From a virus (taxonomy: Duplodnaviria > Heunggongvirae > Uroviricota > Caudoviricetes): DNA of 64,000 bases. Below the pieces are notes generated by a model. The model made no database searches, was not told the DNA's origin, and saw only the letters and a list, made by a program, of their open reading frames with translations. A program made the translations under genes and the position numbers. Where the stretch lies: IMG/VR virus record IMGVR_UViG_3300037471_001511, positions 1 through 64,000 of that record; one strand, 5' to 3'. This document shows positions 12,703 to 64,000 of the stretch, piece by piece; within the stretch, counting starts at the first letter, position 1; each line of letters opens with the position of its first letter.

Positions 12703-12751
12703 AACAACTCGCCGCCCGCAGGCCGGCGAGCGCCGAGTCATGGTCGCGTGC

Positions 12752-13054: not shown

Positions 13055-14222
13055 ACTCGGCCAGTACGTCGAGGCGCGGAAGCGTGCAAACGGCACGTAT
13101 GCGGTGCGGTTCAAACTGTCACCTGCCATGACGCCAAAGGACTGGCCCTCGGTCTGGCCGCTTCCCCGCACCGGCAATTGGCCTGGCAACCTACTCGACC
13201 CTCAAGAAGTCCAAGCCATCCGTGACGACGCCGCTGCGCTCCGCGTGGAAGTCCAGATGGCTCGGGCGACGCAGAAGGTCGATGAGAACCAGGCCCTGCA
13301 GCCTCGGACGTGGGAAACCCTACGTGACCGGTGGGAGGCCGATCCGGAATTTAAGCGTCTCGACGACACGACCAAGCACGGCTATCGCGCCAATGTCAGG
13401 CGGGCCATCAGGCTGGCCACCGAGGATAACGTTCGACCCTCGACCGCATCAGAACTGGAAATCACAACAGCTCTGAACCGGGTGACGCACCCAGTCACCC
13501 GTACGGCGACCCTTCACGCCTTCCGTGTGATGCTCCGTGACGCCAAACGGCTCGGTTGGCGCAAGGACAACCCTACCGAGGACATCAAGATCAAGGGCCG
13601 AGCCAAAGCATCGCAGCAATCCCGCGTCGGAATTTGGGAAGCCGACGACGTGGCGTTTTATGCCCGCAAGGCGGAGGAAGCCGGCCTAGTTTCACTGGCT
13701 GGCATCATTCAGACCGAGTGGGAGATCGGCCAACGCCTGACCGATGTGCGCCTGTTCCGCTACGCCAAGGACAAGAAGGATCGCGAGGGACAATACCTTC
13801 GCTCCGACGGCGTGTTCCGCTTCTGGCAGAACAAGACACAGCAGTGGGTGACCATCCCAGTTTCAGATCGTTTGATGGGCCTCCTGAACCGGCCCGGCGG
13901 AAGCCTGCTGTTCCCGCACCCCACCACTGGCGAAGCCTACACCAGTGACCAACTGACGAAGGAGTTTAACGGGCTCCGGAAGCTGGTCGGCCGGAACCGT
14001 CGCTTCCTCGAAATGAAGCACCTGCGCCACTCCTGCGTCGTTCAGTTGGCGACCGCTGAACCGGTCCCATGCGAGATCCTCGAGATCGCGGCGATCACGG
14101 GGCACACAGTCGCGTCTGTGAATACGATCATTCAGCGCTACTGCCCGAGGGACAATCGCCTGGCTTGGGCGGCGCAGCGGAAACGCGGACTGGTCCGTTC
14201 GGAGCCTGCGGTCGCCCAATAA
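12969..14222 (+). CDS. int: tyrosine integrase
   Basis: C-terminal HLRHSCVV..., ITGHT and terminal Y (RHRY catalytic pattern); N-terminal arm-binding-like region; start could be 12942 or 12969. Confidence 0.85.
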   Translation: MTTRGKKRSASNSKGSPAEVERRFLDQLELGQYVEARKRANGTYAVRFKLSPAMTPKDWPSVWPLPRTGNWPGNLLDPQEVQAIRDDAAALRVEVQMARATQKVDENQALQPRTWETLRDRWEADPEFKRLDDTTKHGYRANVRRAIRLATEDNVRPSTASELEITTALNRVTHPVTRTATLHAFRVMLRDAKRLGWRKDNPTEDIKIKGRAKASQQSRVGIWEADDVAFYARKAEEAGLVSLAGIIQTEWEIGQRLTDVRLFRYAKDKKDREGQYLRSDGVFRFWQNKTQQWVTIPVSDRLMGLLNRPGGSLLFPHPTTGEAYTSDQLTKEFNGLRKLVGRNRRFLEMKHLRHSCVVQLATAEPVPCEILEIAAITGHTVASVNTIIQRYCPRDNRLAWAAQRKRGLVRSEPAVAQ

Positions 14223-14599: not shown

Positions 14600-14672
14600 T
14601 GGACGCGGTCGGGATCGAACCGACGGCCGAGGACTTTAAGTTCCCCTGCTCTCACCACTGAGCTACGCGCCC
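14600..14672 (-). tRNA. tRNA-like gene (73 nt, no encoded CCA) with canonical acceptor, D and T arms but ambiguous anticodon loop
   Basis: reverse complement GGGCGCG-TA-GCTC-AGTGGTGA-GAGC-A-GGGGA-ACTTAAA-GTCCT-CGGCC-GTCGG-TTCGATC-CCGAC-CGCGTCC-A; the anticodon stem has a mismatch in either register, giving UUA or UAA. Confidence 0.65.
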
Positions 14673-14831: not shown

Positions 14832-15044
14832 TCAGCCGCGCCAAGCATCAGGCGAGCCCCTCGAGATCATCCGTTGGCCCAGCGCGGCCCTGTAGCCGTG
14901 CAGGAACCCGGTCCACAGGATCTGGATGTCGTGCCGGCGGTACTGGCCGTGCTCGGGGTGGCGCTGCAGGTAGGGCGGGCCTGGCGACCTGGCGCGCAGG
15001 TCCGCCTCGAACAGCTCGCGGATCGCGTCCTCGTTCCCGATCAC
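14832..15044 (-). CDS. hypothetical protein (70 aa, GTG start)
   Basis: very high GC3 in this frame; RBS GGGAGGA 5 nt upstream of GTG; GTGA overlap with upstream gene. Confidence 0.45.
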   Translation of the reverse strand: MIGNEDAIRELFEADLRARSPGPPYLQRHPEHGQYRRHDIQILWTGFLHGYRAALGQRMISRGSPDAWRG

Positions 15045-15950: not shown

Positions 15951-16306
15951 CCCAGCACCCCGTGTTTCTGCAACTGGGCGCGCAGCTCGAAGGCCTCGCC
16001 CCGCCGGCTCGCTTCGAAATTGTCGAGCAGGATCTTCAGCATGAGCGTGACCGCCTCAGGCCGGTCGAGCCGCTTGCCGCTCACCGCCTCGACGAACCCC
16101 GCCAAGCGGGCCGCGCCCGCGTTCACCCCGCCCATGGCGCCGGACATGGCCACGCTCAACAGGACCGCCGGGTTTCCTTCCAGCGAGGCGAGGTCCATCG
16201 TGTGTTCGAAGGCCCGTTCAATGTCGCCCTGCAGTTTATGGCACAGGTCCCGGGTCAGCTCGCCCTGTTGCCGGGCGTCCCAGACGACCTTGTCACGCGT
16301 TTCCAT
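15947..16306 (-). CDS. hypothetical protein (119 aa)
   Basis: ORF in operon series. Confidence 0.4.
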   Translation of the reverse strand: METRDKVVWDARQQGELTRDLCHKLQGDIERAFEHTMDLASLEGNPAVLLSVAMSGAMGGVNAGAARLAGFVEAVSGKRLDRPEAVTLMLKILLDNFEASRRGEAFELRAQLQKHGVLG

Positions 16307-16811
16307 TGACCATGACCTCGAGCACGTTGATGGCGGTGAGGCCGGCCCCGTAGTTTTCGGGCCAGACCCTGTCGGCGGTGGCGACGGTCTGTCGAAACCC
16401 GAACTCCTTCAGGATCATGTCGACCGCCACGATGTTGGGCAGTTTGCCGCCTTCGACCGAGACGGACAGATGGCGGGCCAGGCCCGGCGGCTGTTGTTCG
16501 TGGGTGTAGGTGACCGTGAAGCCCACGGGCAGGTCTATGGTGAACTTCAGCGGCAGCGTGCGCTTGCCGTCGCGCGAGCGAGGGTTCTCCGGATCGAAGC
16601 CCTTCGACCAGTCTTCCAGCTCTGCCAACGTGATCGGCTCGGCCTGCGCCAGCGCGATCAGCTCTTCGATCTTGGCGCGCTCGTCGGCGCCGATCACCAG
16701 TGGTCTCACTTCACCCTCCCCTTCAGCCGCACCCCGAGCTGCTCCACGATCTCCATGTGACCGGTCTCGGCTTCGGCCCAGGTCGCGTAGCGGTGGCACA
16801 GATCGGTCCAC
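16293..16811 (-). CDS. hypothetical protein; true start probably internal
   Basis: N-terminal approximately 35 aa of the track ORF are Arg/Gly-rich and look non-coding. Confidence 0.35.
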   Translation of the reverse strand: MDRSVPPLRDLGRSRDRSHGDRGAARGAAEGEGEVRPLVIGADERAKIEELIALAQAEPITLAELEDWSKGFDPENPRSRDGKRTLPLKFTIDLPVGFTVTYTHEQQPPGLARHLSVSVEGGKLPNIVAVDMILKEFGFRQTVATADRVWPENYGAGLTAINVLEVMVNGNA

Positions 16812-17713: not shown

Positions 17714-17949
17714 GGCTGAGACGCCTTGATTCCGATGAACTTCCAGTCGCCGCCCGGCACGTACCGGGCGGTGAAAAAGCCGCACCCGCGGCCCTGCACA
17801 GACCGTGCGACCCAAGGGGGCACGGCCTGCCTGCGCACGCCTTTGCGACCTTGAACGAACACGTCGTAGGCGCCCTCGAAGGCCTCGACCTTCACCACGA
17901 AAACGGCGCCCAGCTCGGCGTCGAACACCAGCGGTTTCACGTCGTCCAT
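17707..17949 (-). CDS. hypothetical protein (80 aa)
   Basis: C-terminal 80 codons of track ORF 17707..18468 look protein-like whereas the rest is Arg/Pro-rich; ATG 17949. Confidence 0.4.
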   Translation of the reverse strand: MDDVKPLVFDAELGAVFVVKVEAFEGAYDVFVQGRKGVRRQAVPPWVARSVQGRGCGFFTARYVPGGDWKFIGIKASQPW

Positions 17950-18515
17950 CATCGGCGATACCCCAACTTGACCTGTCGCATCGGCCGGGTGCCGCGGCCG
18001 GGCATGTCGTGGCTGGGGATCGCCACCTGCGCGCCGACGAACAACTGCGGGTACTGGGCGCGACTGTAGGTTTTCCCGGCCGGGGAAAAAATGGTGTGTC
18101 CTTCGGTTCCGCCGCCGACCACGACGATGGCCTTCAGGTCGATGGCGAGATTGCGCAAGCCCCGCTGCTGGGCCTTCCACGCGTCGGGCCGTTTCGGATC
18201 GACGTGGACCGTGAGCACCATCGGCGAGCCGTGCGGGTCGGACACGGCGACCACGAAGCCCACCTTCATCGGGTGCCACGCGTCGGGAATGTACTGGGTA
18301 GCCCGCCACAGGCAGTAGAACTCCTGACACGACTTGGGCCGCTCGGCGTACTTGGTGCAGCCGCAGCCCAGGCCCGGGGCCATCTGCAACGGGCAACGCA
18401 CGCCGGCCGGCTTGTCGGGCATCTCGTTGACGCCCAGCGCCTCGCAGCACAGGTCGCAGCCGCGGCACGACCGGCCGTTGGCTTCGATCTGGGCGATGAT
18501 GGCGTCGAAGTTCAT
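17949..18515 (-). CDS. Cys-rich protein with CRGCDLCC motif (YkgJ/UPF0153-like zinc/iron-binding)
   Basis: CRGCDLCC...C...CGC...C...C; the 18-bp palindrome copy at 18071 lies inside this ORF and encodes FSPAGK. Confidence 0.5.
   Translation of the reverse strand: MNFDAIIAQIEANGRSCRGCDLCCEALGVNEMPDKPAGVRCPLQMAPGLGCGCTKYAERPKSCQEFYCLWRATQYIPDAWHPMKVGFVVAVSDPHGSPMVLTVHVDPKRPDAWKAQQRGLRNLAIDLKAIVVVGGGTEGHTIFSPAGKTYSRAQYPQLFVGAQVAIPSHDMPGRGTRPMRQVKLGYRR
18071..18090. repeat. near-perfect copy of the TTTCCCCGGCCGGGGAAA palindrome (TTTTCCCGGCCGGGGAAAA)
   Basis: lies within a coding region, unlike the other four copies. Confidence 0.4.
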
Positions 18516-18805
18516 GACGCCCGCCGATGCTCCCGTTCGGACAGCGCCCGCATCAGCTCGCCCGTGGTGCGGCCCATCTCGAGCAGCAGCATGTTGGGGT
18601 TCTGGATCACCGTATCGAAATCGAGCGACGTGGTGAGCGCCCCCACGACACCGCCGTCGGCGCCCATCCGGCAGCAGACGACCTTGAACCCCTCCGGCTC
18701 AATCTCAAGCGTGGTCCGGTAGATGTTGCCGCCCTTGATCTGCGCTTCGCGCACGGCTGCGCCCAGGAACGCGTAGGCTTCGGCCACCGACGGTATGTGC
18801 GTCAC
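18512..18805 (-). CDS. hypothetical protein (GTG start)
   Basis: RBS GGGAAAGAAG upstream of GTG. Confidence 0.35.
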   Translation of the reverse strand: MTHIPSVAEAYAFLGAAVREAQIKGGNIYRTTLEIEPEGFKVVCCRMGADGGVVGALTTSLDFDTVIQNPNMLLLEMGRTTGELMRALSEREHRRAS

Positions 18806-19281
18806 TTCTTCTTTCCCTTCCCGAACAGCTCGTTCCACGTCTTTTCCGGATCGACCACCGGCGGAAACTCGACGCCGTCGTTGCGCGCCTTGGTGATCGC
18901 CGAGTAGACGGTGCCCACCTTGATGTTCAGCTCTCGGGCGATGTCGCCCGGCGGCATGCCCTCGATCCGAAGCTTGACCACCTGCGGCCACTTCACCTGC
19001 TCGCCGCCGTAGGTCCGCAGGTGTTCGTCCCCGAACTTCACCCCGAACTTCCGGGCCTGGGCGATCTCGGCCTTCACGGCTTGCAGCGACATGCCCTCGG
19101 CCTCGGCGATCCCTTCCGGGGTTTCGCCCCGCAGCCGCCGTTCGACGATCCGCGCCCCGGGGCTCTCGCTCACGTAGCCAGCCTGCTCGAGCGCGCCCTG
19201 CATCACCGCCTGACAGTTCGGCAGGTCGAGGAAGCGACGAACGAGGATCCAGAACTCCGCCTCGGTGAGGGGTTCGGTCAT
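18802..19281 (-). CDS. DNA-binding protein with two tandem sigma-70-region-4/GcrA-N-terminal-like HTH units
   Basis: GETPEGIAEAEGMSLQAVKAEIAQARKFG and GMPPGDIARELNIKVGTVYSAITKARNDG; basic C-terminal tail. Confidence 0.55.
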   Translation of the reverse strand: MTEPLTEAEFWILVRRFLDLPNCQAVMQGALEQAGYVSESPGARIVERRLRGETPEGIAEAEGMSLQAVKAEIAQARKFGVKFGDEHLRTYGGEQVKWPQVVKLRIEGMPPGDIARELNIKVGTVYSAITKARNDGVEFPPVVDPEKTWNELFGKGKKK

Positions 19282-19991
19282 GCGGCCTTCTTACGAACCT
19301 TGGGCAGCTTGCCGTGCTGGCGCATCCAGTAGATGTCGTTGTCGACCCGGTGCGGTTCGATTTTCAGCTCCTCGGCGATGGCTTTGTTGGTCATGCCGCG
19401 CAGGTGCAGCTTGCGGACCTCGGCGTGGCGGGCCTCGACCTCGGGGTCGCGTTTGTATGCCTTGCGCTGCGGCTTGGTGCCCTTCGCAAGGTACAGATAG
19501 TTGGCCACCTGCTTGCGGGTGACGCCCCCGCCCAGCGCCTTGGCGATGGCCCCCGGCTTCTGGCCGAGGTCCATCAGCGTCTTGGCCCGGAGCTTCTGGT
19601 CCTCGGTCAGCCCCGTTTTGTTGGACGGCGGGAACGGGTCGTCGCCGCCGCCGCTCAGGATCTTGCGCGCCGCCCCGCCTCGTGGCGCGGGCGGGAACTT
19701 CACCCCTTCGTTCACCATGCGCGCCAGCAGTTTGTGGATGATCGTCGGATCGACGTTTTCGTTCCTGGCGATCTGGGCGGGGATCTCGCCGCGCCGTCGG
19801 CGCTCGAGCACGCGGCTCTCGAAGTCCTCAGGCAGCGGGGCTTCGATGGCGAGCGGCGCCGGCCCGGCGATGGCACGGACGTGGTCCAGCAGCGTGCGCC
19901 GCGCCATGCCCCGCAGGCTGGCCAGCGCGTCGATCCAGTCGGCAGCGTCGTCGCTGGCGATGAAGGCGGCAAGCGACTGAGGATTGATCAT
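19278..19991 (-). CDS. DNA-binding protein with three tandem GcrA-N-terminal-like HTH units (paralogue of the previous gene)
   Basis: GEIPAQIARNENVDPTIIHKLLARMVNEG, GQKPGAIAKALGGGVTRKQVANYLYLAKG, GMTNKAIAEELKIEPHRVDNDIYWMRQHG; resemblance to GcrA SQIAKQLGGVTRNAVIGKVHRLG is from memory. Confidence 0.55.
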   Translation of the reverse strand: MINPQSLAAFIASDDAADWIDALASLRGMARRTLLDHVRAIAGPAPLAIEAPLPEDFESRVLERRRRGEIPAQIARNENVDPTIIHKLLARMVNEGVKFPPAPRGGAARKILSGGGDDPFPPSNKTGLTEDQKLRAKTLMDLGQKPGAIAKALGGGVTRKQVANYLYLAKGTKPQRKAYKRDPEVEARHAEVRKLHLRGMTNKAIAEELKIEPHRVDNDIYWMRQHGKLPKVRKKAA

Positions 19992-20341
19992 TTCGGCAGC
20001 ATGTAGGGGTTGACGTTGCGGTCGGCGCCGTCAGACCAGATCTTGGTCCAGCCGATGGCGCGCATCACCATGGTCATGGTGTAGTTCTGCGGGCGCTTGG
20101 TGCCGCCGTGCAGCCACCCGAGGATGGCGTAGCGGCTGACCTTGTTGCCCATTTTCTCGGTCTCGCGCTCGATCCACTCCGGCGTCTTGCCGCTCTCTCG
20201 GATCGCCGCGGTGACAAATTCCAGCTCGGGATCCTTGTCCCAGGTAAATCGGCCGGCGACTTCGGTCTTCGTCCCGATCTGGCGCAGGTCGTTCGGCTTG
20301 CGCCGGGGACCGGCTGGGTGTTGGGCGACAACAGCAGGCAC
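19988..20341 (-). CDS. hypothetical protein (117 aa)
   Basis: stop overlaps the ATG of the downstream gene. Confidence 0.4.
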   Translation of the reverse strand: MPAVVAQHPAGPRRKPNDLRQIGTKTEVAGRFTWDKDPELEFVTAAIRESGKTPEWIERETEKMGNKVSRYAILGWLHGGTKRPQNYTMTMVMRAIGWTKIWSDGADRNVNPYMLPK

Positions 20342-20353
20342 GTTTCCCTCCTT

Positions 20354-20596
20354 CTACAGGAACCACGTTTCGACGATCACAGGGTCGTCTTCTGGCGCCC
20401 TGTTGATCTGGTTGCAGAACCCTTCGCCCACGATGCGCTCCCGCAGCTCGTCAAGCGACTTCGAGATCAGGACGACACCGGTCGGTCGCGGCTCCGGCAG
20501 CGCGAACCACAGTCGGGCCACGTAGCTGTCCGGGCAGTCCGCCGGCTTGTCCGTCACCACCCAGTGTGGAAGCCAGTTCGGGTCGATGTTCGTCAT
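20354..20596 (-). CDS. hypothetical protein (about 80 aa)
   Basis: internal ATG (MTNIDPNWLPHWVV...); upstream part of track ORF is Arg/Ser-rich. Confidence 0.35.
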   Translation of the reverse strand: MTNIDPNWLPHWVVTDKPADCPDSYVARLWFALPEPRPTGVVLISKSLDELRERIVGEGFCNQINRAPEDDPVIVETWFL

Positions 20597-20704
20597 GGGT
20601 TTCGTTCCACGGAGACGGCGCGCCGCAGCGGGCGCACTCGGCCGAGAATGGCTGGTCCGTCTCGACGTCCCAAGCGTGGCCGACAAGTTTGCACCACAGA
20701 CGGA

Positions 20705-21016
20705 TCACAGGTCGGGCCTCTTAATCCCGCCCGGCGGTCGACGGATGATCGCGACGAGGAAGATGACGGTCAGCACCAGCATCAGGATGTTGGGCGCCGC
20801 GACCCATACAGGTTTGTGACCAGCGATGTTGCGCCCAAGCTCGCCGAGGTAGTTGCCGAGGACGGCCCCCCATCCCCCCAGCGCCATCGCCCGGAAGAAC
20901 TGGACGTCGCGGATCGCCAGGTCCATTACCCGTTCGAAGCGGGCAAACAGTTCTTCAATTGCTGTCGGCGCCCACGGCCCCCGCGCGCGTGGGTTCAGGT
21001 CGGGGAGGGTGTTCAC
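20705..21016 (-). CDS. membrane protein (C-terminal TM), co-transcribed with repressor
   Basis: NILMLVLTVIFLVAII TM segment; 4-bp overlap with repressor stop. Confidence 0.5.
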   Translation of the reverse strand: MNTLPDLNPRARGPWAPTAIEELFARFERVMDLAIRDVQFFRAMALGGWGAVLGNYLGELGRNIAGHKPVWVAAPNILMLVLTVIFLVAIIRRPPGGIKRPDL

Positions 21017-21645
21017 GCGACCTTCTCCACGAGGTAGCCGCTCCCGGTCGTCCGCACGGCGAGTCGTCCGGCCCCCACGCTGGCGGCCATCGACTTGACG
21101 GCCTGCGGCGAGCTGAAGATCCCGAACGGGAAGGTGATCTTCTCACCGGTGGATTTTTCGAGCAGCGATTCCATCTGCAGCCGCTCGGGCGACTTCTGCC
21201 GCCCGGTCTGCCGCGGCTGCACGGCGACGGTGACGGCGTCCTCACGGATCGGCGGCAGGTCGTTCCTGCAGCGAAGCTGACTGGCGCCTACGGCGAGATC
21301 CCTGATCAGCTTGCGCTGGGCCGGATGCAGTTCGAGCAGGGCGGTGACGATCTCATGACCGTAGTCGACCGCGAGCAGCTGCTCGAGCGGCGAGGAGGGC
21401 ATCTCGTACCCGGCCTCCAAGCCCTCGAAGAAGTAGGAAATGGGGACCTGCAGCTTCTTCGCCGCCATCATCAGGCTCGACGAGGAAACCCGGTTGGTGC
21501 CTTTCTCGTACTTCTGAACCTGCTGGAACGTGACCTCCATCGCGGTGGCCAGTTCCGATTGGGACACTCCGATCTGCTTGCGACGCGATCGGATACGAGT
21601 ACCCACGTAAACGTCGACTTCGTGCAAACCACTACCCCCGGTCAC
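21013..21645 (-). CDS. XRE-family HTH transcriptional regulator, candidate phage repressor (GTG start)
   Basis: IRSRRKQIGVSQSELATAMEVTFQQVQKYEKGTNRVSSSSLMMAAKKLQVPISYF is a classic XRE/Cro-CI HTH; about 110-aa C-terminal extension of unclear type. Confidence 0.7.
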   Translation of the reverse strand: MTGGSGLHEVDVYVGTRIRSRRKQIGVSQSELATAMEVTFQQVQKYEKGTNRVSSSSLMMAAKKLQVPISYFFEGLEAGYEMPSSPLEQLLAVDYGHEIVTALLELHPAQRKLIRDLAVGASQLRCRNDLPPIREDAVTVAVQPRQTGRQKSPERLQMESLLEKSTGEKITFPFGIFSSPQAVKSMAASVGAGRLAVRTTGSGYLVEKVA

Positions 21646-56626: not shown

Positions 56627-57088
56627 ATGACTGAAAATCCCACCTACCCGACCCTGACGGACGCCGCCCTGGTTCCGTTCCGCGCGCTCGAGGTCCAGCT
56701 CGACAAGTTCCCTGACCTGTTCGACCGGCCCGACTGCCCCTACCCGCCTCACATCCGCACCGTCGTGCAGCGCCTGTGCGGCGTGACCGCGGAGGCGCCC
56801 ACCGCCTACGACGACGAGAGTCTCGAGAGCGAGATCGTCAGCCTCTACAACGAGCTGAAACGCGTCGGCCTGAACGTCACCGGCGTCGACGCCAAGGAAA
56901 AAATCGCCCTGCTCAAGACTTCGGGCGATCTGCTGACCAAGATGGTCCAGCTCCGAGAGCGTCAGATCAACGTACGAGAGATGGGCGCCTTCCAGCGACT
57001 GGTGATCCAGTTCATGGAAGAGAGCATGACGCCTGCTCAGCGCAACGAATTCATTGAAAAGATGGGGAAATACCTCGATGTTCGCTGA
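56627..57088 (+). CDS. hypothetical protein (153 aa)
   Basis: first gene of rightward operon. Confidence 0.45.
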   Translation: MTENPTYPTLTDAALVPFRALEVQLDKFPDLFDRPDCPYPPHIRTVVQRLCGVTAEAPTAYDDESLESEIVSLYNELKRVGLNVTGVDAKEKIALLKTSGDLLTKMVQLRERQINVREMGAFQRLVIQFMEESMTPAQRNEFIEKMGKYLDVR

Positions 57089-59513
57089 GTACGCCCCGTT
57101 CTACTGGGCCAAGGGCCTGCCGGCGATGCCGCTGCGGCCCAGGTCCAAGATCCCGGCCCTGATGTCGTGGCAGCACTTCGCCAAGAAGATGCCCAACGCC
57201 GACGAACAGGCGGCCTGGCTGGCCGCCTACCCCGACGGCAACATGGGCCTGCCGCTGGGCGAGCAGTCGAGGATCGTGGTGATCGACCTCGACACCGACG
57301 ACCCCAAGGTGCTCAGGATCCTCGAGAGCCTGATGCCGCCGACCCCGTGGGTGAGACGGGGCAAGAAGGGCGCGGTCTACGCGTTCCGCTTCAACGGCGA
57401 GCGCAGCTTCCGCATCAAGGACGAGGACGGCGCGTCGATCCTGGAGGTGCTGTCGAGCGGCACGCAGGTGGTGCTGCCGCCGTCGATCCACCCCGACACC
57501 CAGCTGCCCTACGAGGCCAACGCGCCGCTGTACGAGGTGCTCGACCGGCTGAACCCGCTGCCGGCCAACTTCGAGGGCGCCGTCCGCAAGGCGCTGATCG
57601 ACGAGGGCTACAAGCTCACCACGCGCGGCCAGACCAAGCTGATCGAGTGGGTGCCGGCCGGCGGCCGGGACTCGGCGCTGGTGTCCGTCGCCGGCCTCAC
57701 CGCCCGCGACATCCTGAGCGGGCGGATTTCGCTGCTCGAGGGGCTGAACCAGATCGCCACCTGGGTGTCCGCGTTCACCGAACGGGTGATCGGCGACAGC
57801 ATGAGCGCGGCCAAGGCGCAGGAGAAGGTGCTCGAGTTCCTCCGCCGCGACGTGGTCGAGCACAAGAAGATGCTCCCGCCCGGCTGGGACGCCGGCATGG
57901 ATCCGAGCGAGGTGATCCGCCTGCGCACCTACTTCGGCGAGGACGTCGAGGAATGGGACCAGGCCCGGCTGCTGGACTACCTGACGCAGAAGTTCATCGA
58001 GATCCCGCGCGAGGACATCCTGGGCCGCACCAAGATCATCGACGAGACGGTGATCAGGATCGCCCGCTCGACGGCGCTGACCAGCATCGACGAGGACGTG
58101 ATCGTCCGCTTCATCGTCTCGGCCAACAACCGGCTGATCACCGCCGAGTCGCTGCGCAAGGAGCTGAAGAAGCTGCGGGCCGGCGAGATGCAGGGCAACG
58201 ACCACACCGAGATCGCCACCGCCCTGCTGGAACGGCTCGAGGCCTACGGCGAGATCCGCTTCTACGGCACCACCTTCTACCAGTGGCGGGGGTCGCACTG
58301 GCAGGAGCTGCCCGAGACCCGGCTGTTCGACGAGCTGGCCAAGGAGTTCGGCAAGCTGCCGGCCGCGCGCCGGCACGCCGACCACAAGGGCATCATCGCG
58401 GTGGTCCGCACGCTGGCCAGCAAGCCGCTGGTCGAGCTGTCGGTCCCGGGCGTCAACTTCGCCAACGGCTACCTGACCCTGGACCTCGAGCTGCGCCCCC
58501 ACGAGCCGAAGTACGGGGCCACCTACGTGCTGCCGTACCGCTACATGCCCGAGTGCGGCACGCCGCTGCGCTTCCTGTCGTTCCTCGACCAGTGCTGGGG
58601 CGAGGATCCCGACTACCCTGAGAAAGTGCAGGCGGTGCGCGAGGCGGTGGCGGTGACGCTGTTCGGCCTGGCCGCCCGTTTCTCGAGGGCGATCTGCCTG
58701 TACGGCGTGCCCAACTCGGGCAAGTCGACCCTGTCGAAGATCGTGCTCGGCCTGGTCCCCGAGAGCGCCGCCTGCAGCGTCCCGCCGCACGACTGGGGCG
58801 ACAAGTTCCTGCCCAGCCAGATGGCCGGCAAGTTGGTCAACTTCTGCGGCGAGCTGTCGGAGTCGGCGATGATCTCGGGCTCGGCGTTCAAGTCCATCGT
58901 CGAGGGCGAGGAGATGAACGGCCAGCACAAGGGCAAGGACATCTTCAAGTTCCGCCCGTTGTGCGCCCACTGGTTCGCCTCCAACCACCTGCCCCGCACC
59001 CGGGACACCAGCGCAGGCTTCAACAGGCGGTGGCTGTTCCTGCACTTCACCCGGGCGATCAGCCAGGCGATCAAGGTGCTGGGTCTCGAGAACGACATCC
59101 TGGCCGAAGAGCGCGAGATGATCGCGTCGTGGGCGGTGGGGGTCCTACCAGAGCTGCTGCAGCGGCAGGAGTACACGCTGCCGCGGTCGCACTGGGAGCT
59201 GGTGTCGGAGGTGGCGGCGTCCAACAACAGCATCCGTTTTTTCTTGCTGTCGGGAGCGGTCGAGGTCCGCGCCGCTCCCGAGGACGGGGGATCCTCGATC
59301 CGCACGTCCGAGAGGGACCTGTACGGGCGCTACTATGCCTTCTGCAAGACGTTGGCCAATGTACCGCCTGTTGCCTTGAAGCGCTTCAGGCTGATGGCCC
59401 AGGAGCTGCAATCCGAGCTAGGGTTCAACATCCGCGTCACCACGGGCAATTGCGGGGAAGAGTGCCACTACGAGAACCTCATGCTCGTCACTGCAGCAAA
59501 GAGGGCCTCGTAG
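57078..59513 (+). CDS. primase-helicase (N-terminal PrimPol-like domain, C-terminal P4/D5-type SF3 helicase)
   Basis: VVIDLDTDD acidic primase motif near N-terminus; Walker A GVPNSGKST in C-terminal half. Confidence 0.7.
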   Translation: MFAEYAPFYWAKGLPAMPLRPRSKIPALMSWQHFAKKMPNADEQAAWLAAYPDGNMGLPLGEQSRIVVIDLDTDDPKVLRILESLMPPTPWVRRGKKGAVYAFRFNGERSFRIKDEDGASILEVLSSGTQVVLPPSIHPDTQLPYEANAPLYEVLDRLNPLPANFEGAVRKALIDEGYKLTTRGQTKLIEWVPAGGRDSALVSVAGLTARDILSGRISLLEGLNQIATWVSAFTERVIGDSMSAAKAQEKVLEFLRRDVVEHKKMLPPGWDAGMDPSEVIRLRTYFGEDVEEWDQARLLDYLTQKFIEIPREDILGRTKIIDETVIRIARSTALTSIDEDVIVRFIVSANNRLITAESLRKELKKLRAGEMQGNDHTEIATALLERLEAYGEIRFYGTTFYQWRGSHWQELPETRLFDELAKEFGKLPAARRHADHKGIIAVVRTLASKPLVELSVPGVNFANGYLTLDLELRPHEPKYGATYVLPYRYMPECGTPLRFLSFLDQCWGEDPDYPEKVQAVREAVAVTLFGLAARFSRAICLYGVPNSGKSTLSKIVLGLVPESAACSVPPHDWGDKFLPSQMAGKLVNFCGELSESAMISGSAFKSIVEGEEMNGQHKGKDIFKFRPLCAHWFASNHLPRTRDTSAGFNRRWLFLHFTRAISQAIKVLGLENDILAEEREMIASWAVGVLPELLQRQEYTLPRSHWELVSEVAASNNSIRFFLLSGAVEVRAAPEDGGSSIRTSERDLYGRYYAFCKTLANVPPVALKRFRLMAQELQSELGFNIRVTTGNCGEECHYENLMLVTAAKRAS

Positions 59514-59579
59514 ACTTCGACCTGTGGGAACACGGCTGGGCGTGGAAGATCCTCCACGCCCAACCGGAGAAGCGCCCCG

Positions 59580-59813
59580 TCACGTCGAAGCGGCGGTGAA
59601 CGTCAGGTAGTAGGCCTTGCCGGGCTCGAACTGGATGGCGGCGTCAGGGTTGTCGATCGTCATCCAGAGTTCGCCCGACGGCGTGGCCTTCGTGAACCGC
59701 TTGTTCTCCTCGTTCTCGCCGAGCGCCCCCTCATAGACGGGGATCAGCTTGACCTTCTTCGAGTAGCCGTAGTCCTCGACAGAAATGCAGGTGAATTTCG
59801 CGCGCACGGACAT
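59580..59813 (-). CDS. hypothetical protein (77 aa)
   Basis: protein-like composition. Confidence 0.45.
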   Translation of the reverse strand: MSVRAKFTCISVEDYGYSKKVKLIPVYEGALGENEENKRFTKATPSGELWMTIDNPDAAIQFEPGKAYYLTFTAAST

Positions 59814-59956
59814 GCGTGTGCTCCTATGGCTTTCAAGGTTTGGGGGAGGCCTCCCCAGTCTCTGTCGGCCCGGAATTGGATCGTCGGGCGAGACGGGCTG
59901 GGGATCAGCTCGAACGGCCTAGCACGGCCTCGGTCGGCGCGGTCGGAAACCTATTC

Positions 59957-59979
59957 GGTTCCACTGGAACACTGGTTCC
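59957..59979. promoter_or_regulatory. motif copy GGTTCCACTGGAAC plus partial ACTGGTTCC
   Basis: 145 bp upstream of the 59813 gene start. Confidence 0.45.
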
Positions 59980-60101
59980 GGACTTGCGGACCTTTTCCCG
60001 TAATGACCACCTCGCTGGCACGAGGCCCACCCCACGGGTAGCAGGTCCGCCTTGATGCCCGCCCTGTCCAGACATGGGCCGCGGGGAGTCCCTGGGGTGG
60101 C

Positions 60102-60302
60102 TTAGGTGTGTTGGTCGAGAAAGTTGCGGAGCGCTTCCAGCTCGAGCTGGTCGATCCTGTGCTCGAGCAGCTCGTATTCGGTCTCGACGGCGAGGACCGC
60201 GCCGCCCTCGGGGCGGATCGCGAGGCTGAAACCGCTGTCTTCGGGCCGGCCTGGCCACCCGTAGGTGTCGCCCGACACCACGCCGAACTGGATCTGGCTC
60301 AT
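60102..60302 (-). CDS. hypothetical protein (66 aa)
   Basis: ATGA-coupled to upstream tiny gene. Confidence 0.4.
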   Translation of the reverse strand: MSQIQFGVVSGDTYGWPGRPEDSGFSLAIRPEGGAVLAVETEYELLEHRIDQLELEALRNFLDQHT

Positions 60303-60400
60303 CGGTTGGCCACCCAAGTGCAGAAAGCGAGCGCCACAAGGCCCATCACCCAGACGATGCCTTCGATGGCGGCGATTTTGACGTCGTTGTCGGTCTTCAT
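60299..60400 (-). CDS. tiny membrane protein (33 aa)
   Basis: MKTDNDVKIAAIEGIVWVMGLVALAFCTWVANR. Confidence 0.3.
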   Translation of the reverse strand: MKTDNDVKIAAIEGIVWVMGLVALAFCTWVANR

Positions 60401-60530
60401 GCTCGGCTCTCCGGCCTCGGTCGGCGGGGTACGGCTCGGGACCGTCCCCGCCGGCCTCGGTGCGTTGCCAGGGAGGCTACACAGCGAAGCTAGACCCGAA
60501 AAACGCGATTGGGGGCCGGAATCGTCACTA

Positions 60531-60542
60531 TTCCACTGGAAT
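60531..60542. promoter_or_regulatory. motif copy TTCCACTGGAAT followed by an AT-rich stretch
   Basis: in divergent intergenic region 60401-60835. Confidence 0.45.
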
Positions 60543-60787
60543 TGGCGAAAAATGGGCCGTTTTTGAGTAAATCCGGCTCATTTTTGAAGATTTCGCTATG
60601 ATAGCAGTCAATTTTCGAAAATTTCCGCGAGGTATTTTCGAGATGGTCGGCCTGGGGCCATTGATTTTGCTCAATAAATCGGTGTACGGCTCCTGGCCGA
60701 GGTCCTCATCCGCGACCATAGGTCCGTCAGTTGTATTGTTCGGGTGCGAGTATCCTTCTGTCGCTGCGGCGACGGGGGCCGCGCCTC

Positions 60788-60809
60788 GGTTTCCCCGGCC
60801 GGGGAAAAC
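60788..60809. repeat. palindrome GGTTTCCCCGGCCGGGGAAAAC, copy 1
   Basis: 27 bp upstream of ATG 60836. Confidence 0.6.
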
Positions 60810-60835
60810 GCAACGCAACCGAGAGGCTTAGACCC

Positions 60836-61714
60836 ATGACCGTTGTCGATACCGCCGCCCCCGTGGCCCCCGCCGCGACCGTGGCCCCCGCCCCCGTCGC
60901 CCCCGTCGCCCCCGCGACGCAAACCGCGTCGGCGCCGCTCGCCGCCGCGTCGGCTCCGGCCGAACAACCGGCCGTCCTGTACTCGGCTGAAGTGTACGTC
61001 GCCCCCTTCCGCGACAACGTGTCCAACGCGGTGAACGTGTTGATCGAAGCGAACAAATCGCTCCTCGCCCGCACGTCCGAACTCGCCTTGGCGTACATGG
61101 CCGCGTTCCCCGCCGCGTCGGTCGGGGATTGGACGAAATACATGAAGGACGCGGAACCCTCCGACGGTTCGGTTTCCACCTCCACGCTCAACAACAACCG
61201 GACCTATGTGAAGAACTGGCTGAACGCGGGGCACATGGCGGGGGTCCGTCACCACGTCGGCGACCCGTCGCGACTGACGGCCGAACAGTTCAAGGCGGCC
61301 GTAGTGGCGTACGCGGAAAAGAACGGGACGGCGCCCCGCCCGACCGAAACCCGCACCACGCGGGCCGCGCAACCCCCCGCGCAACCGGCCCCCGCGCAAG
61401 GGACCATCGGCACGTCGCAACCGGCGCCCGAACCGGCCCCCGCCGCGACCACGCAACCGGCGCCGGAACCGGCCCCCGCGACCACGACGGCGGACCCGGC
61501 CCCCGTCGCGGCCACGGGCGACGGCGCGGCCAAGGCGGACAACCTGCGGGGCCGCGTGTGCGACTTGATCGCCATGCTGGAGGCCGACGCGGTGACGGGC
61601 GACGGCCACGCGCTCGCCGCCTTGGAGGCGATCGCCGAACGGGTGACGGTCGCGCTCGCCGCCGCGACCGCTCCGGCCCCCGCCACGGCGGCGACGGCCC
61701 CCGCCGTCCACTAA
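60836..61714 (+). CDS. Ala/Pro-rich protein (292 aa) with central globular domain
   Basis: APVAPAATVAPAPVAPVAPA and QPAPEPAPA low-complexity flanks. Confidence 0.5.
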   Translation: MTVVDTAAPVAPAATVAPAPVAPVAPATQTASAPLAAASAPAEQPAVLYSAEVYVAPFRDNVSNAVNVLIEANKSLLARTSELALAYMAAFPAASVGDWTKYMKDAEPSDGSVSTSTLNNNRTYVKNWLNAGHMAGVRHHVGDPSRLTAEQFKAAVVAYAEKNGTAPRPTETRTTRAAQPPAQPAPAQGTIGTSQPAPEPAPAATTQPAPEPAPATTTADPAPVAATGDGAAKADNLRGRVCDLIAMLEADAVTGDGHALAALEAIAERVTVALAAATAPAPATAATAPAVH

Positions 61715-61739
61715 CGGTTTCCCCGGCCGGGGAAAACCG
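61715..61739. repeat. palindrome CGGTTTCCCCGGCCGGGGAAAACCG, copy 2
   Basis: starts 1 bp after stop of the 292-aa gene. Confidence 0.6.
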
Positions 61740-61744
61740 ACCTC

Positions 61745-61777
61745 GCCCCCCGGGCTCCGGCCCGGGGGGCCTTTCCC
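61745..61777 (+). terminator. GC-rich hairpin GCCCCCCGGG-ctccgg-CCCGGGGGGC followed by CTTTCCC (weak U-tract)
   Basis: perfect 10-bp stem. Confidence 0.4.
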
Positions 61778-61831
61778 GCATCGACGCCCAGGATCCTGGG
61801 CCGCGCCTTCCGTGCGCGAAGGGAGATCCGC

Positions 61832-62048
61832 CATGACCGTTTCCGCCGGCCGCGCCGCCGAATGGCGCGCCCGCGCTCACGCCGCCTTGACGCGGCGCGA
61901 GGCGATTTTCGACGAACTCGAAACCGAGACCGATCCGGAGCGCGCGGCCCTGTTGCGCCGCTCGCTGGAGGACGAACGCGCCCGCTTCGAGACCGCCCTG
62001 CAGACCGCCGGCCGCTACATGCGGTTCCGGCCCCGGTCCGCCGCCTGA
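61832..62048 (+). CDS. hypothetical protein (72 aa)
   Basis: ATG 61832. Confidence 0.4.
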
Positions 62049-62066
62049 TTTCCCCGGCCGGGGAAA
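62049..62066. repeat. palindrome TTTCCCCGGCCGGGGAAA, copy 3
   Basis: fills the 35-bp gap between two small genes, starting 1 bp after a stop; RBS AAGGAG follows. Confidence 0.6.
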
Positions 62067-62083
62067 CCGCCAAGGAGACCGCC

Positions 62084-62470
62084 ATGCCGATCACGATCAC
62101 GACGGTGATCCGCCGTCGCGTCGAGCCCCCGCCCCCGCCCGAGGCGGTGGACGGAACCATCCACTACGACCCGCGCGACCCGGCCGGGTTTTCCGATCCC
62201 GGTCGGCGCCGCTACGACGACCGCTCCGGCACGTGGCTGCGCGTGCCCGATCCCGATCCGCGGGACACCCGACGGCCGGCGTTCAAGACCGTGACCCCGC
62301 GCACCGTGGCCGGGGGATCGCCCTACGTGGTTCGGGACCGCGTCACGGGCTCGATCCTGTGGCGCTTCCGGGCGTGGACGCGCCAGGCCGCGCAGTCGGA
62401 GTGCGACCGCCTGACCCTGCTCTCGGGCGGACGCGTGCATTGGACCAGGCTGGAGGACGACGCATGCTGA
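62084..62470 (+). CDS. hypothetical protein (128 aa)
   Basis: RBS AAGGAGACC; ATG 62084. Confidence 0.45.
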   Translation: MPITITTVIRRRVEPPPPPEAVDGTIHYDPRDPAGFSDPGRRRYDDRSGTWLRVPDPDPRDTRRPAFKTVTPRTVAGGSPYVVRDRVTGSILWRFRAWTRQAAQSECDRLTLLSGGRVHWTRLEDDAC

Positions 62471-62601
62471 TCCGCTCGAACCCGTACGGGGCCTACCGGC
62501 CGTCGCTGACGCTCGACCTGCGCCGTCGCGAACTGGTGTGGATCGCCCGCACCTTCATCGTGGTCTGGGGCCGCTATGTGGAGTACGCGTGGCGGGTCTG
62601 A
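62464..62601 (+). CDS. hypothetical small protein (45 aa)
   Basis: ATGCTGA overlap with previous stop. Confidence 0.3.
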   Translation: MLIRSNPYGAYRPSLTLDLRRRELVWIARTFIVVWGRYVEYAWRV

Positions 62602-62689
62602 CCGGGAGGGGGGTGCCGTCGCCGCCGCCCGGGAGGCTTGCGTCGGTAGAATGTGGCCTTTTTGCGCCCGAAAAGTGCCTTTACGCCTC

Positions 62690-62860
62690 AAGTCTCCTTA
62701 CTTTGATTTCTTCAGACACAGATTGTTCTATTAGAAATATATATAAGATTTGATGCTAAATTAGGGACGATGAAGCGTTTAATGCTATCATCGTTTGTCG
62801 ATAAATAACCTAGCCAGCCCGCAAATTTCACGCGAGCCAAGCTTTTGTATTGCTTGTTGA
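62690..62860. other. AT-rich island (about 30% GC in a 65% GC genome)
   Basis: ctattagaaatatatataagatttgatgctaaattaggg...atcatcgtttgtcgataaataacc. Confidence 0.6.
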
Positions 62861-62880
62861 TTTCCCCGGCCGGGGAAATC
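62859..62880. repeat. palindrome GATTTCCCCGGCCGGGGAAATC, copy 4 (perfect 22-mer)
   Basis: 75 bp upstream of ATG 62953. Confidence 0.6.
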
Positions 62881-62952
62881 CGAGCCCGATCCCCACCCTG
62901 AACCTTCACCCACGCCGCTCGATCCTCGGGCCGCTGCAAAGGAGCCTGCGTC

Positions 62953-63318
62953 ATGCACGTCTTCGTCGATCTCACCGACCCCCAGCTCGACCAGCTGCTC
63001 AAGAACAGCATCGAGCGGGTCGTGAACACCAGCATCAGCATCATCGAAACGACGCCGTCGGACGAGCCCGACCTGATCGAGACCAACCTGCTCGACTGGA
63101 AAGCGCTCAAGCCGATCGTCGTCGCCCTGTGGAGCGCGGCCCAAGCAGCGCGCAGACAGGATCTGCAGCCCGCACCCCCGATCATGGTCGACGCGGACAC
63201 GACCAAGATCCGCACCGTCCAACTCATGGGTATGGTCCACCACGCCTTCGAGGTGAATGGTGAGCTGTATGTCAGCCCCAAGCCGATCGGCCGGGTTGGC
63301 GACTGCATCCGCCCCTAG
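62953..63318 (+). CDS. hypothetical protein (121 aa)
   Basis: RBS AAAGGAG; protein-like. Confidence 0.45.
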   Translation: MHVFVDLTDPQLDQLLKNSIERVVNTSISIIETTPSDEPDLIETNLLDWKALKPIVVALWSAAQAARRQDLQPAPPIMVDADTTKIRTVQLMGMVHHAFEVNGELYVSPKPIGRVGDCIRP

Positions 63319-63330
63319 AAGGAGCTAGCC

Positions 63331-63606
63331 ATGTGGCCTGTCGTCGACGTTCCTGTACCACCCGCCCAGGTCCAAGCCTACGTGGTCGAGACCTGCATGC
63401 GCCGGCCCAGCTCGACGCCGCTGATCGTCACCAACGAGCGGCAGATCGACTGCGTAGGGCGCTTCGGGACCACCCGCTACGTGCTGCTGCCCACGCCCAA
63501 GGGCACCAAGGTGCAGGTGTCCGCCGAAGAACCGCTCATGACGCCGCAACAGGCCGAGGAGGACGCCCAGCGCTGGGCCGACGGCGTGAGGGAAGAATTC
63601 CCATGA
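63331..63606 (+). CDS. hypothetical protein (91 aa)
   Basis: RBS GAAGGAG; overlaps downstream start. Confidence 0.45.
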   Translation: MWPVVDVPVPPAQVQAYVVETCMRRPSSTPLIVTNERQIDCVGRFGTTRYVLLPTPKGTKVQVSAEEPLMTPQQAEEDAQRWADGVREEFP

Positions 63607-64000
63607 GATACAGCACCTTGGACGGCATGCGCGGCGTGGCCGCACTGGCCGTCGTCGTCGCCCACGTGTGCGAAATGCTGTTCGAGCTGCGCCTCGAGAA
63701 CATCAGCTTCGCGGTCGACTTCTTCTTCGCGCTCAGCGGCTTCGTGCTGGCCGACCCCAAGCCCGGCTTTCTCAAGCAGCGCGCGATCCGTCTGCTGCCG
63801 CTGAGCCTGCTCGGCCTCGTCGCCGGCCTGCTGCTGGACCCCTCTCCACCCTACAACTACGTGGTGCCGTGGAACGGGCCGCTGTGGTCGCTGGTGGTGG
63901 AGGCCGCAGCCAATCTCGTGTGGGGGCTCGCCGCACCGTACCTGCGGACGCGCCACCTCGTCCTCATCACCGCCACCTTCGGCGCCGTCCTGCTGGTCGA
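63603..64000 (+). CDS. acyltransferase-3 family membrane O-acetyltransferase (Oac/OafA-like), 3' end beyond the window
   Basis: N-terminal LDGMRGVAALAVVVAHV signature followed by multiple TM helices. Confidence 0.65.
   Translation, partial: MRYSTLDGMRGVAALAVVVAHVCEMLFELRLENISFAVDFFFALSGFVLADPKPGFLKQRAIRLLPLSLLGLVAGLLLDPSPPYNYVVPWNGPLWSLVVEAAANLVWGLAAPYLRTRHLVLITATFGAVLLV

Follow-up and report, generated by a model that had tools for sequence, protein, structure and literature searches.

Phage-specific palindromic repeats mark the early genes beside the predicted terminal repeat of a Seuss/JWF-like siphophage

The 64,000-nucleotide stretch analysed here (the window, positions 1 to 64,000 of virus record IMGVR_UViG_3300037471_001511, to which all coordinates refer unless a comparison locus is named) holds near its right-hand end an array of small genes punctuated by an 18-base perfect palindrome, TTTCCCCGGCCGGGGAAA. 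Four perfect copies fall inside 2.1 kb (starting at 60790, 61718, 62049 and 62861), and near copies occur at 18071 (1 mismatch), 30462 (2 mismatches) and 6886 (3 mismatches). With up to three mismatches allowed, the window gives seven matches versus 0.07 expected, and none of 100 shuffles gave seven. Copy 4 (62861-62878) extends to a perfect 22-mer, GATTTCCCCGGCCGGGGAAATC (62859-62880), and the 21-mer CGGTTTCCCCGGCCGGGGAAAAC is common to copies 1 and 2 and present in copy 3 as its reverse complement. The original prediction, made from the letters of the window alone, of a repeated palindrome that is extended in some copies is confirmed by these counts. As it had also reported, the copy at 18071-18088, identical at 17 of 18 positions, lies within a coding sequence, a 188-aa Cys-rich open reading frame (ORF; 17949-18515, minus strand). 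No further copy is present in the 1.9 kb past the window end that could be read from a contig of Logan SRR35147325, which is 100% identical to the window over 8.2 kb.

All genes of the array are on the plus strand. Copy 1 (60790-60807) ends 28 nucleotides 5' of the ATG of g1 (60836-61714), which encodes a Pro/Ala-rich protein of 292 aa. The extended form of copy 2 (61718-61735) begins at 61715, immediately after the g1 stop codon (TAA, 61712-61714), and is followed by a strong GC-rich hairpin at 61745-61770 on the plus strand (GCCCCCCGGGC-TCCG-GCCCGGGGGGC, then CTTTCCC). This hairpin looks like a terminator or 3' stabiliser behind g1; a strict terminator scan does not flag it, and all close relatives have a comparable hairpin 3' of their g1 homologue. 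Next comes g2 (61833-62048, 71 aa), between copies 2 and 3. Copy 3 (62049-62066) directly follows the g2 stop codon (TGA, 62046-62048) and ends 17 nucleotides before the ATG of g3 (62084-62470, 128 aa), whose end is overlapped by g3b (62464-62601, 45 aa). Copy 4 precedes g4 (62953-63318, 121 aa) by 74 nucleotides, and g4 is followed by g5 (63331-63606, 91 aa) and by an Acyl_transf_3/O-acetyltransferase gene (63603-64000) that is cut by the window end and encodes 280 aa in L004 (L001-L113 are the labels of the comparison loci, L001 being Caulobacter phage Seuss). The gaps from palindrome to ATG are thus 28 (60836), 97 (61833), 17 (62084) and 74 nucleotides (62953). The claim that each copy sits immediately before a start codon fits copies 1 and 3 and not copies 2 and 4, and of the four start codons first proposed three are exact, while the second lies at 61833 rather than 61832. 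The observations that two copies abut the preceding stop codon, that the genes between the copies have no known function and that an O-acetyltransferase gene stands at the end of the array all hold. None of g1, g2, g3, g3b, g4 and g5 has a Pfam or PHROG match, and the Shine-Dalgarno (SD) sequences of the four genes behind the palindromes are not alike. The segment 60800-62600 has a GC content of 73-81%, versus 66% for the window, and is bordered by AT-rich patches at 60500-60720 and 62640-62850.

By its sequence, the window belongs to a Seuss/JWF-like siphophage. The 819-aa primase encoded directly upstream of the array (57054-59513) shares 56% identity with that of Seuss and 40-44% with those of Achromobacter phages JWF and 2-1 and Xylophilus phage Lumi. 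Gene order is as in Seuss, with DNA polymerase, nucleases and ribonucleotide reductase on the plus strand; a long minus-strand block (terminase to tail and lysis genes) comes next, then the primase, then the array. A megablast search of the phage collection gave no match, and no closely related primase was found in IMG/VR. A single other contig, that of Logan SRR35147325, shares the primase; it is 100% identical to the window and so offers no variation to compare.

Seuss has a direct terminal repeat of 1,748 bp (PMC4591317) and Lumi one of 2,298 bp (PMC9959647). The Seuss repeat extends downstream of the primase, through gp003, gp002 and gp001, to an AT-rich physical end. Both ends of the JWF and 2-1 records carry the first two genes. 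In alignment, the Seuss repeat boundary falls at about 60646/60647, and its physical end (GAGTTGGAC|GG) falls roughly at 62768/62769, from which we infer a direct terminal repeat of about 2.1 kb at 60647-62768. The AT-rich patch at 62640-62850 (37% GC) aligns with the AT-rich physical end of Seuss and with its equivalents in L005, L006 and L007. On these alignments, copies 1 to 3 would lie inside the repeat, copy 1 about 145 bp into it, and copy 4 about 93 bp beyond its end; g1 would be the first gene of the repeat and g4 the first gene past it. Two non-coding blocks upstream of g1 are conserved in five phages. One, at 60595-60627 on the plus strand and just before the repeat boundary, is GCTATGATAGCAGTCAATTTTCGAAAATTTCCG, common to Seuss, L005, L006 and L007, with the conserved elements GCTATGATAGCAGT...TTTTCGAAAATTT; the other, GGTGTAC, stands at 60681-60687 in the five-phage alignment. 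Both could be packaging, terminus or first-promoter signals.

The genes flanking the insert-like g2 belong to this conserved terminal region. g1 shows weak homology to Seuss gp003 and to the equally placed genes of L006 and L007 (small-database BLASTP, 7e-9 to 6e-5), and is otherwise an ORFan: searches of 5.8e9 proteins and, with phmmer, of 1.84e9 representatives return g1 alone. g3 is a conserved terminal-repeat gene of the Seuss gp001 family, matching L005, L007 and L006 in tblastn (9e-15 to 1e-6), with 12 invariant columns in the family alignment, four of them Trp; in the large protein search it matched only itself. Neither g1 nor g3 has a PDB sequence match, and a single-sequence AlphaFold2 model of g1 is unusable (pLDDT, the predicted local distance difference test, of 45). 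g3b resembles, by eye and without alignment, the 42-aa ORF that precedes g3 in L007. For g2 there is no homologue in any relative, and it appears to be a lineage-specific insert bracketed by copies 2 and 3.

The window palindrome itself is missing from the relatives. TTTCCCCGGCCGGGGAAA is found, at up to two mismatches, in none of about 165 related loci examined, and its single occurrence in IMG/VR, on an unrelated contig, looks like a chance match in a coding region. Instead, at least 17 relatives each carry their own palindrome of 13-19 bp in 2 to 10 copies. In Seuss, L005, L006 and L007, the phage's own palindrome occupies the position of copy 1, before the g1 homologue. Seuss has five sites of TTTACCTGAGGTAAA, with none elsewhere in its 85 kb, all on the early strand and 1-17 nucleotides before the starts of gp003, gp002, gp116, gp101 and rIIA. 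The four copies of TTTCACAT(C/G)ATGTGAAA in L007 comprise two before the g1 homologue, one past its terminator-like hairpin and one before the first genes beyond the AT-rich terminus. L006 has four copies of TTTTCAC-N5-GTGAAAA, and L005 has four or five of GGTTACC-N2-3-GGTAACC. GTTCGTWACGAAC occurs ten times in JWF and nine times in 2-1. Among relatives farther from the window phage, taken from metagenomes and genomes, CCATATC-N-GATATGG occurs four to nine times in L026, L101 and L102 (as CCATATCSGATATGG, nine times, in L102). The remaining families of this group are GTTCCCGTTAACGGGAAC in L013 (three copies), TTGCCAGNTGGCAA in L035 (three), GTATTACGTAATAC in L092 (seven), GGAGTC-N4-GACTCC in L098 (five), ACTAGGT-N5-ACCTAGT in L100 (six), AAGGTTGACGTCAACCTT in L108 (eight), AGTCGC-N3-GCGACT in L110 (six) and GTTCAASTTGAAC in L113 (four).

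Within a genome the palindrome sequence is identical, and it is common to close relatives (JWF and 2-1; L026, L101 and L102) and differs between distant ones; in the five closest phages, related half-sites are seen (TTTCCC, TTTCAC, TTTACC and GTTACC). Almost every scored site (75 of 76, in 15 loci) lies downstream of the primase (P=1e-26). Furthermore, 55% of sites, versus 18% of random positions, are followed within 60 nucleotides, on the primase strand, by an SD and start codon (P=6e-13), the commonest gap from palindrome to start being 15-35 nucleotides. The absence of the palindromes from relatives that keep the genes had been named in advance as an outcome that would count against a cassette array. 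The exact sequence is indeed gone from the relatives, but a palindrome of another sequence is kept at the same positions. About half of the relatives with enough downstream sequence have no clear palindrome family, and a looser search for degenerate palindromes in these returned mostly GC-rich noise; we therefore regard the feature as widespread and do not claim that it is universal. None of the papers searched on Seuss, Lumi and the Achromobacter phages, among which the primary JWF genome paper was not included, mentions the repeats. The palindromes are a lineage-wide system marking early genes beside the terminal repeat, of which we found no description in the searchable literature.

All four window copies fold in their native context into the same hairpin of 6-9 bp (-9.6 kcal/mol for the 18-mer alone), which raises the question of whether DNA or RNA is recognised. 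As an RNA element, a short hairpin 5' of the ribosome-binding site in a polycistronic early mRNA would be bound, cut or protective; it could be the target of a phage RNA-binding protein (a translational repressor or activator, or a boxB-type antiterminator) or of a specific endoribonuclease, or protect the downstream cistron from decay. We consider this somewhat unlikely, though more likely than the other alternatives to a DNA site, and several observations speak for it. The gaps between cistrons in which sites lie are very short; sites follow stop codons directly and precede an SD and ATG by 0-35 nucleotides. In JWF and 2-1 the order and spacing are fixed, as palindrome, 4 nucleotides, AAGGA, 6 nucleotides and ATG, and the palindrome arm of Seuss and L005 includes the SD. 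A change of 1 nucleotide in loop length is tolerated in L005 and L108. In the window, copy 2 stands directly before the strong terminator-like hairpin, an order that recalls cro-nutR-tR1 of phage lambda.

The comparison across relatives points the other way. Predicted hairpin energies range from 0 to -10 kcal/mol across the lineage, with negligible hairpins of 0 to -3 kcal/mol in several families (-0.2 in L092, -2.8 in Seuss, -3.0 or 0 in L101/L102, -1.7 in L113), so that the shared property is dyad symmetry and not structure. The stem sequence is conserved and the loop free, whereas known hairpin-binding proteins (MS2, PP7, N-boxB) read RNA in the opposite way. Five of the eight even-length families are self-complementary through the centre (rough P=5e-5), a property that is superfluous in an RNA loop. 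Where the centre is odd or asymmetric, its sequence varies freely, with all four bases found in L026, and both orientations occur ahead of same-strand genes (L007, L006 and L026). Finally, no Rfam family matched at threshold; the best match in Rfam 15, to ctRNA_pGA1 over copy 2 and the following hairpin, scores 27.3 bits versus a threshold of 45 (E=0.02). The range of hairpin stability, the central symmetry, the mixed orientation of the centres and the genome-specific sequence together favour a two-fold symmetric double-stranded DNA site, read by a dimeric protein that would co-evolve with it.

Our preferred explanation, to which we assign a probability of about 0.4, is that the palindromes are recognition sites in double-stranded DNA for a dimeric, phage-encoded, sequence-specific regulator of the early genes, similar to operators or stoperators. 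The regulator would bind on the 5' side of the genes that enter the cell first, or in the gaps between them; these are the terminal-repeat genes and the first gene beyond the repeat. It would control them jointly, most likely by silencing them in a prophage or when early expression gives way to later expression. Copies 1 and 4 lie behind AT-rich non-coding regions, and binding there could occlude a promoter; at copies 2 and 3, between cistrons, it could stop elongation as at mycobacteriophage stoperators. A separate palindrome for each Seuss/JWF-lineage phage at equivalent places would be expected from co-evolution of regulator and site, as with immunity specificities. A shared operator had been among the possibilities first proposed, and it is the one that the comparative evidence favours most, with protein binding and repression as the inferred steps.

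Several observations weigh against a DNA site of this kind. Half-site spacing shifts by 1 nucleotide in L005 (2 or 3 nucleotides) and in two of the eight copies in L108, a change that dimeric DNA binders tolerate poorly and hairpins well. The fixed spacing in JWF and 2-1, where the palindrome stands 15-16 nucleotides from the ATG with a conserved SD between, and the SD inside the Seuss and L005 palindromes suggest coupling to translation and a role at the RNA level. The window palindrome, moreover, is among the most stable hairpins of the lineage. The intercistronic gaps are too short to hold separate promoters, so that sites acting there on DNA would have to be roadblocks, like stoperators, and not classical operators. 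In the AT-rich relative L100, the repeats are terminator-like (A-run, stem, T-run), and a TTGACA box follows three of the six, with N17-TATAGT at one site. The half of the relatives that lack a clear family counts on the same side, as does the location of the candidate regulators about 40 kb from the array instead of next to the sites.

These candidates are encoded by three genes clustered at 18802-21645 on the minus strand near the lysis genes, with the 17/18 copy at 18071 located 0.7 kb downstream. The first (21013-21645, 210 aa) is an XRE-type protein of repressor-like architecture, with an HTH_3 domain (8.6e-11) and matches to PHROG transcriptional regulator and repressor families. The second (18802-19281, 159 aa) is a Sigma70_r4_2/HTH_23-like DNA-binding protein by domain and PHROG matches, and its neighbour (19278-19991) is a third, HTH_23-like protein with a helix-turn-helix similar to that of the second. 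The region upstream of the XRE-type gene contains TTTCAC-N12-GTGAAA, the half-sites used by L006 and L007, and in L092 an XRE-type gene lies directly behind one L092 palindrome. Homologues of the window helix-turn-helix proteins are otherwise absent from the examined stretches of relatives, and the early regions of relatives share almost no protein families by BLASTP. The window also encodes an excisionase-like HTH_17/Exc protein (12740-13054), a divergent tyrosine integrase (12942-14222; phrog_1, 1.5e-11; no Pfam match) and a tRNA-Leu(taa) (14600-14672, minus strand), which together form a lysogeny module. On this basis the phage is probably temperate, although its characterised relatives have direct terminal repeats. 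Many primase relatives are located in large bacterial contigs. Given the integrase, the excisionase-like, XRE-type and two further helix-turn-helix proteins, and these relatives in bacterial contigs, a need to silence a prophage is plausible.

Transcription signals of a more ordinary kind fit the window copies poorly. That the palindromes serve between early genes, much like elements of the T7 early region, as factor-independent terminators or as RNase III sites we regard as very improbable, even though the stems are GC-rich and intergenic and the L100 repeats are flanked by A-runs and T-runs. The bases after the four window stems (AAAACG, AAAACC, AAACCG and AAATCC) give AAA(A)C or AAAT on both strands, an A-run in place of the U-tract of an intrinsic terminator, and none of the four copies was flagged by a promoter and terminator scan, which also found no sigma-70-like site in 59400-63400. 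RNase III requires a double-stranded RNA stem of about two helical turns (some 20 bp or more), whereas these stems have 6-9 bp, and neither role needs an identical sequence at each site. The attenuator suggested in the original prediction is not supported, given the same A-runs and the negative scan, and the RNase III site it also listed is unlikely.

The palindromes might instead be promoter elements for a phage-encoded or phage-modified RNA polymerase, for example as an extruded DNA hairpin like those of N4, giving each gene a transcript with a short leader. The phage-specific 13-19 bp before many early genes, the modal gap of 15-35 nucleotides, which would give a short leader containing the SD, the proximity to the genome end that probably enters first and the lack of conserved sigma-70-type boxes alongside the sites are all consistent with such elements. 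We nonetheless judge them improbable: a perfect palindrome gives no direction, yet the genes served are all on one strand and the asymmetric centres are mixed in orientation; in Seuss the ATG lies 1-6 nucleotides behind the palindrome, with the SD inside it; and no RNA polymerase gene was found in the scanned parts of the window. No RNA polymerase domain was detected among about 90 proteins scanned from the window and L004, which together cover all but about 8 kb of the 74-kb JGI source contig. A 1484-aa window protein is GpJ-like, and a 2013-aa ORF, outside the scans, occupies the position of the Seuss tape-measure gene. The early promoters of phage N4 have a stem of 5-7 bp and a loop of 3 nucleotides and are read by the virion RNA polymerase. 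Similar to these, the window sites are short inverted repeats before the first genes at the terminal-repeat end. Hairpin promoters of the N4 type were rejected, there being no virion RNA polymerase homologue among the scanned proteins and the sites being symmetric, mixed in orientation and present in up to 10 copies per genome. A signal for terminase or for the repeat boundary was rejected as well, the distance to the predicted boundaries being inconsistent among phages and the copies again numbering up to 10 per genome.

Several observations may point to exchange at the repeats. Copies 2 and 3 enclose g2, which is unique to this phage; if joined, the outer flanks of the two copies would give a 24-bp perfect palindrome, CGGTTTCCCCGGCCGGGGAAACCG. 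Two additional small ORFs of L005 each come with a copy of the L005 palindrome. Between JWF and 2-1, homology starts or stops exactly at shared palindromes (for example at 12534/11748, 8330/7331 and 1071/1065), and at three points the alignment is confined to the palindrome and SD, the genes around them being unrelated. The repeats could on this evidence be mainly recombinational, junctions of exchangeable modules at a moron or cassette hotspot without regulatory function, similar in this to the PeSL motifs of T4-like phages. We think this improbable. The positions before and after the g1 homologue are conserved across phages with wholly different palindromes, and since syntenic positions keep a palindrome of completely changed sequence, exchange junctions alone are insufficient. 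Breakpoints at gene boundaries are expected in any case; neither an integron integrase nor an attC architecture is present, and the one integrase lies about 47 kb away; and the collections contain no closer relative of the window phage that could show an indel. A mobile-cassette or moron hotspot had been suggested for the whole array; g1 and g3 are conserved syntenic core genes and not cassettes, while the g2 insert, the L005 ORFs and the JWF/2-1 breakpoints agree with the suggestion. Recombination of the kind reported for the promoter-terminator PeSL motifs (PMC2839356, PMC4122927) is plausible as a consequence of the repeats and finds partial support in these comparisons: on the regulatory reading that we prefer, a short repeat at gene boundaries would also offer recombination points, which could account for the g2 insert.

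Integron cassettes were considered in this connection and rejected. An integron has an adjacent integron integrase, an attI site and a Pc promoter. Its attC sites, each placed 3' in a cassette whose ORF lacks a promoter, are imperfect palindromes of 57-141 bp that contain R''/L''-L'/R' boxes and extrahelical bases. The window sites are perfect palindromes of 18-22 bp, syntenic across phages with different sequences, and the sole integrase (12942-14222) stands about 47 kb off beside the excisionase-like gene and tRNA-Leu.

By analogy, the window palindromes appear to be a variant of known phage regulatory repeats: stoperators, extended start-associated sequences (ESAS) and promoter early stem-loops (PeSL). 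Like the stoperators of Cluster A mycobacteriophages, they are many copies of one short phage-specific sequence in short intergenic gaps within operons, with a consensus that differs among related phages; in stoperators this consensus tracks specificity, and a transcription block for coordinated silencing has been proposed. Stoperators, at which immunity repressors of the L5 gp71 type stop elongating RNA polymerase, are 13-14 bp long, asymmetric, orientation-dependent, bound by a monomer and present in both genome arms (PMC9283540, PMC6550527). Unlike them, the window sites are palindromic and confined to the early region beside the terminal repeat, and the asymmetric centres of relatives occur in both orientations. 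In Cluster K mycobacteriophages, inverted repeats with a subcluster-specific consensus and unknown function stand just upstream of some non-structural gene starts and are missing from the structural half of the genome; an ESAS has two imperfect 17-bp arms and a 4-13 bp spacer and accompanies a 13-bp asymmetric start-associated sequence (SAS) that holds the SD (PMC3203893). The sites described here resemble both elements in their position upstream of early-gene starts and past the primase, to which all the Seuss sites conform. They differ from ESAS in being contiguous perfect palindromes, and a conserved SD-containing leader is found only in some relatives (L092, L098 and JWF). The PeSL of T4-like phages combines a terminator stem-loop with a sigma-70 early promoter (PMC2839356, PMC4122927). 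Similar to PeSL, the window palindromes are a repeated stem-loop motif bounding small variable early genes. Between close T4-like relatives, PeSL border small ORFs that have been inserted, deleted or replaced; the breakpoints at the palindrome shared by JWF and 2-1, and g2 between its two copies in the window, may be comparable. Unlike PeSL, they have no promoter consensus, for which the 17-28 nucleotide gaps at copies 1 and 3 leave no room.

Operators of temperate phages (those of CI and Cro in lambda, 434 and P22) are 14-18 bp long and dyad-symmetric, diverge together with the repressor and cluster at two promoters beside the repressor gene. The window sites share the dyad symmetry and the divergence of sequence between related phages. 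Unlike these operators, they occur once per gene or gene pair, with the candidate regulator genes some 40 kb away. The sites of ParB and Noc were examined too. The Noc-binding site (NBS) is ATTTCCCGGGAAAT (PMC7383237), and parS and NBS are 16-bp palindromes of directly abutting half-sites that work with a ParB-family protein. The ATTTCCC half-site of copies 3 and 4 equals an NBS half-site, and the TTTCAC/GTGAAA arms of L006 and L007 equal parS half-sites. Sites of this class were rejected, as the half-sites here are split by 2-6 extra bp and no ParBc match was found among the window proteins scanned; we treat the resemblance as coincidental.

Phages and prophages of the Seuss/JWF type are common in Caulobacterales, Rhizobiales, Sphingomonadales and Burkholderiales, with 249 primase relatives listed. 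ORFans make up nearly all of their early regions. A phage-specific palindrome is a handle for finding the regulator and the early regulon, its sequence could sort these phages into likely specificity or immunity groups, and the palindromes serve as markers of module boundaries at which accessory genes are picked up, g2 and the acyltransferase block being examples. A more speculative extension, which we hold to be unlikely, is that the palindromes, together with the ORFan genes of the terminal repeat (families g1/gp003 and g3/gp001), make up a self-contained control circuit at the first-entering end. The sites would be read by one of these proteins or by an unrecognised sequence-specific endoribonuclease, and fast co-evolution of the reader with its site would define groups of mutual exclusion or immunity within a widespread lineage of siphophages and prophages with terminal repeats in Alpha- and Betaproteobacteria. 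Such a circuit, if real, would be a palindromic, terminal-repeat-based counterpart of stoperators with a new family of binder.

Beyond the predicted repeat, g4, g5, the acyltransferase gene and two small ORFs stand between the terminus and a gp117-like gene, which in Seuss, L005, L006 and L007 lies directly behind the terminus. The first gene past the terminus in relatives encodes a Cys/His-motif protein (C-x4-CC-x-P-H-H, weak PHROG endonuclease match), found at L004 9111-9599 (about 64930-65418 in window coordinates, outside the window), as Seuss gp117, at L005 16474-16986 and at L007 15184-15510. In the phage studied here it is shifted by about 2.3 kb of inserted genes, including the acyltransferase.

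A second palindrome family, GTTCCANTGGAAC, is genome-wide, with 16 matches at up to two mismatches versus 1.9 expected. It has sites at 1570, 12657, 25069 and 25091, 34838 and 34902, 43064, 56535 and 56553, 59958, and 60530. The best matches fall between predicted genes, in many cases as pairs separated by 18-64 bp. Sites are present in the divergent region between the terminase and primase operons and immediately ahead of the excisionase-like gene. A second family of similar kind in L101 and L102, GGTACG-N3-CGTACC, is found in the structural region as well. A 77-aa ORF between primase and array (59580-59813, minus strand) gives a match to the C-terminal portion of phrog_6978 (1.8e-11), a family of unknown function. 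Together with two further small ORFs on the minus strand, it is flanked by two GTTCCANTGGAAC sites of the window.

Other repeats accompany the terminal regions of relatives. AT-rich, terminus-like patches lie between inverted repeats GAGTTCCATTAACTC … GAGTTAATGGAACTC in L005 (16355-16475) and between copies of the phage's own palindrome in L110 (about 16371-16656). Tandem direct repeats occur by the terminal-repeat region of L006 (14689-14840, five copies of a 35-37 bp unit) and in Seuss (14845-14968, five copies of GACCCGCGAGCGG at a spacing of 20-32 bp); these could be iterons or packaging signals, and no equivalent was seen in the window. Alternating purine-pyrimidine tracts (GCGCGC/GTGCGC) are found between the hairpin of the g1 homologue and the next palindrome in L007 (14140-14190), L006 (13760-13820), L005 (15150-15190) and Seuss (16030-16075), and upstream of palindromes in L026, L101 and L102. 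The window has a short version only, GTGCGCG, at about 61812.

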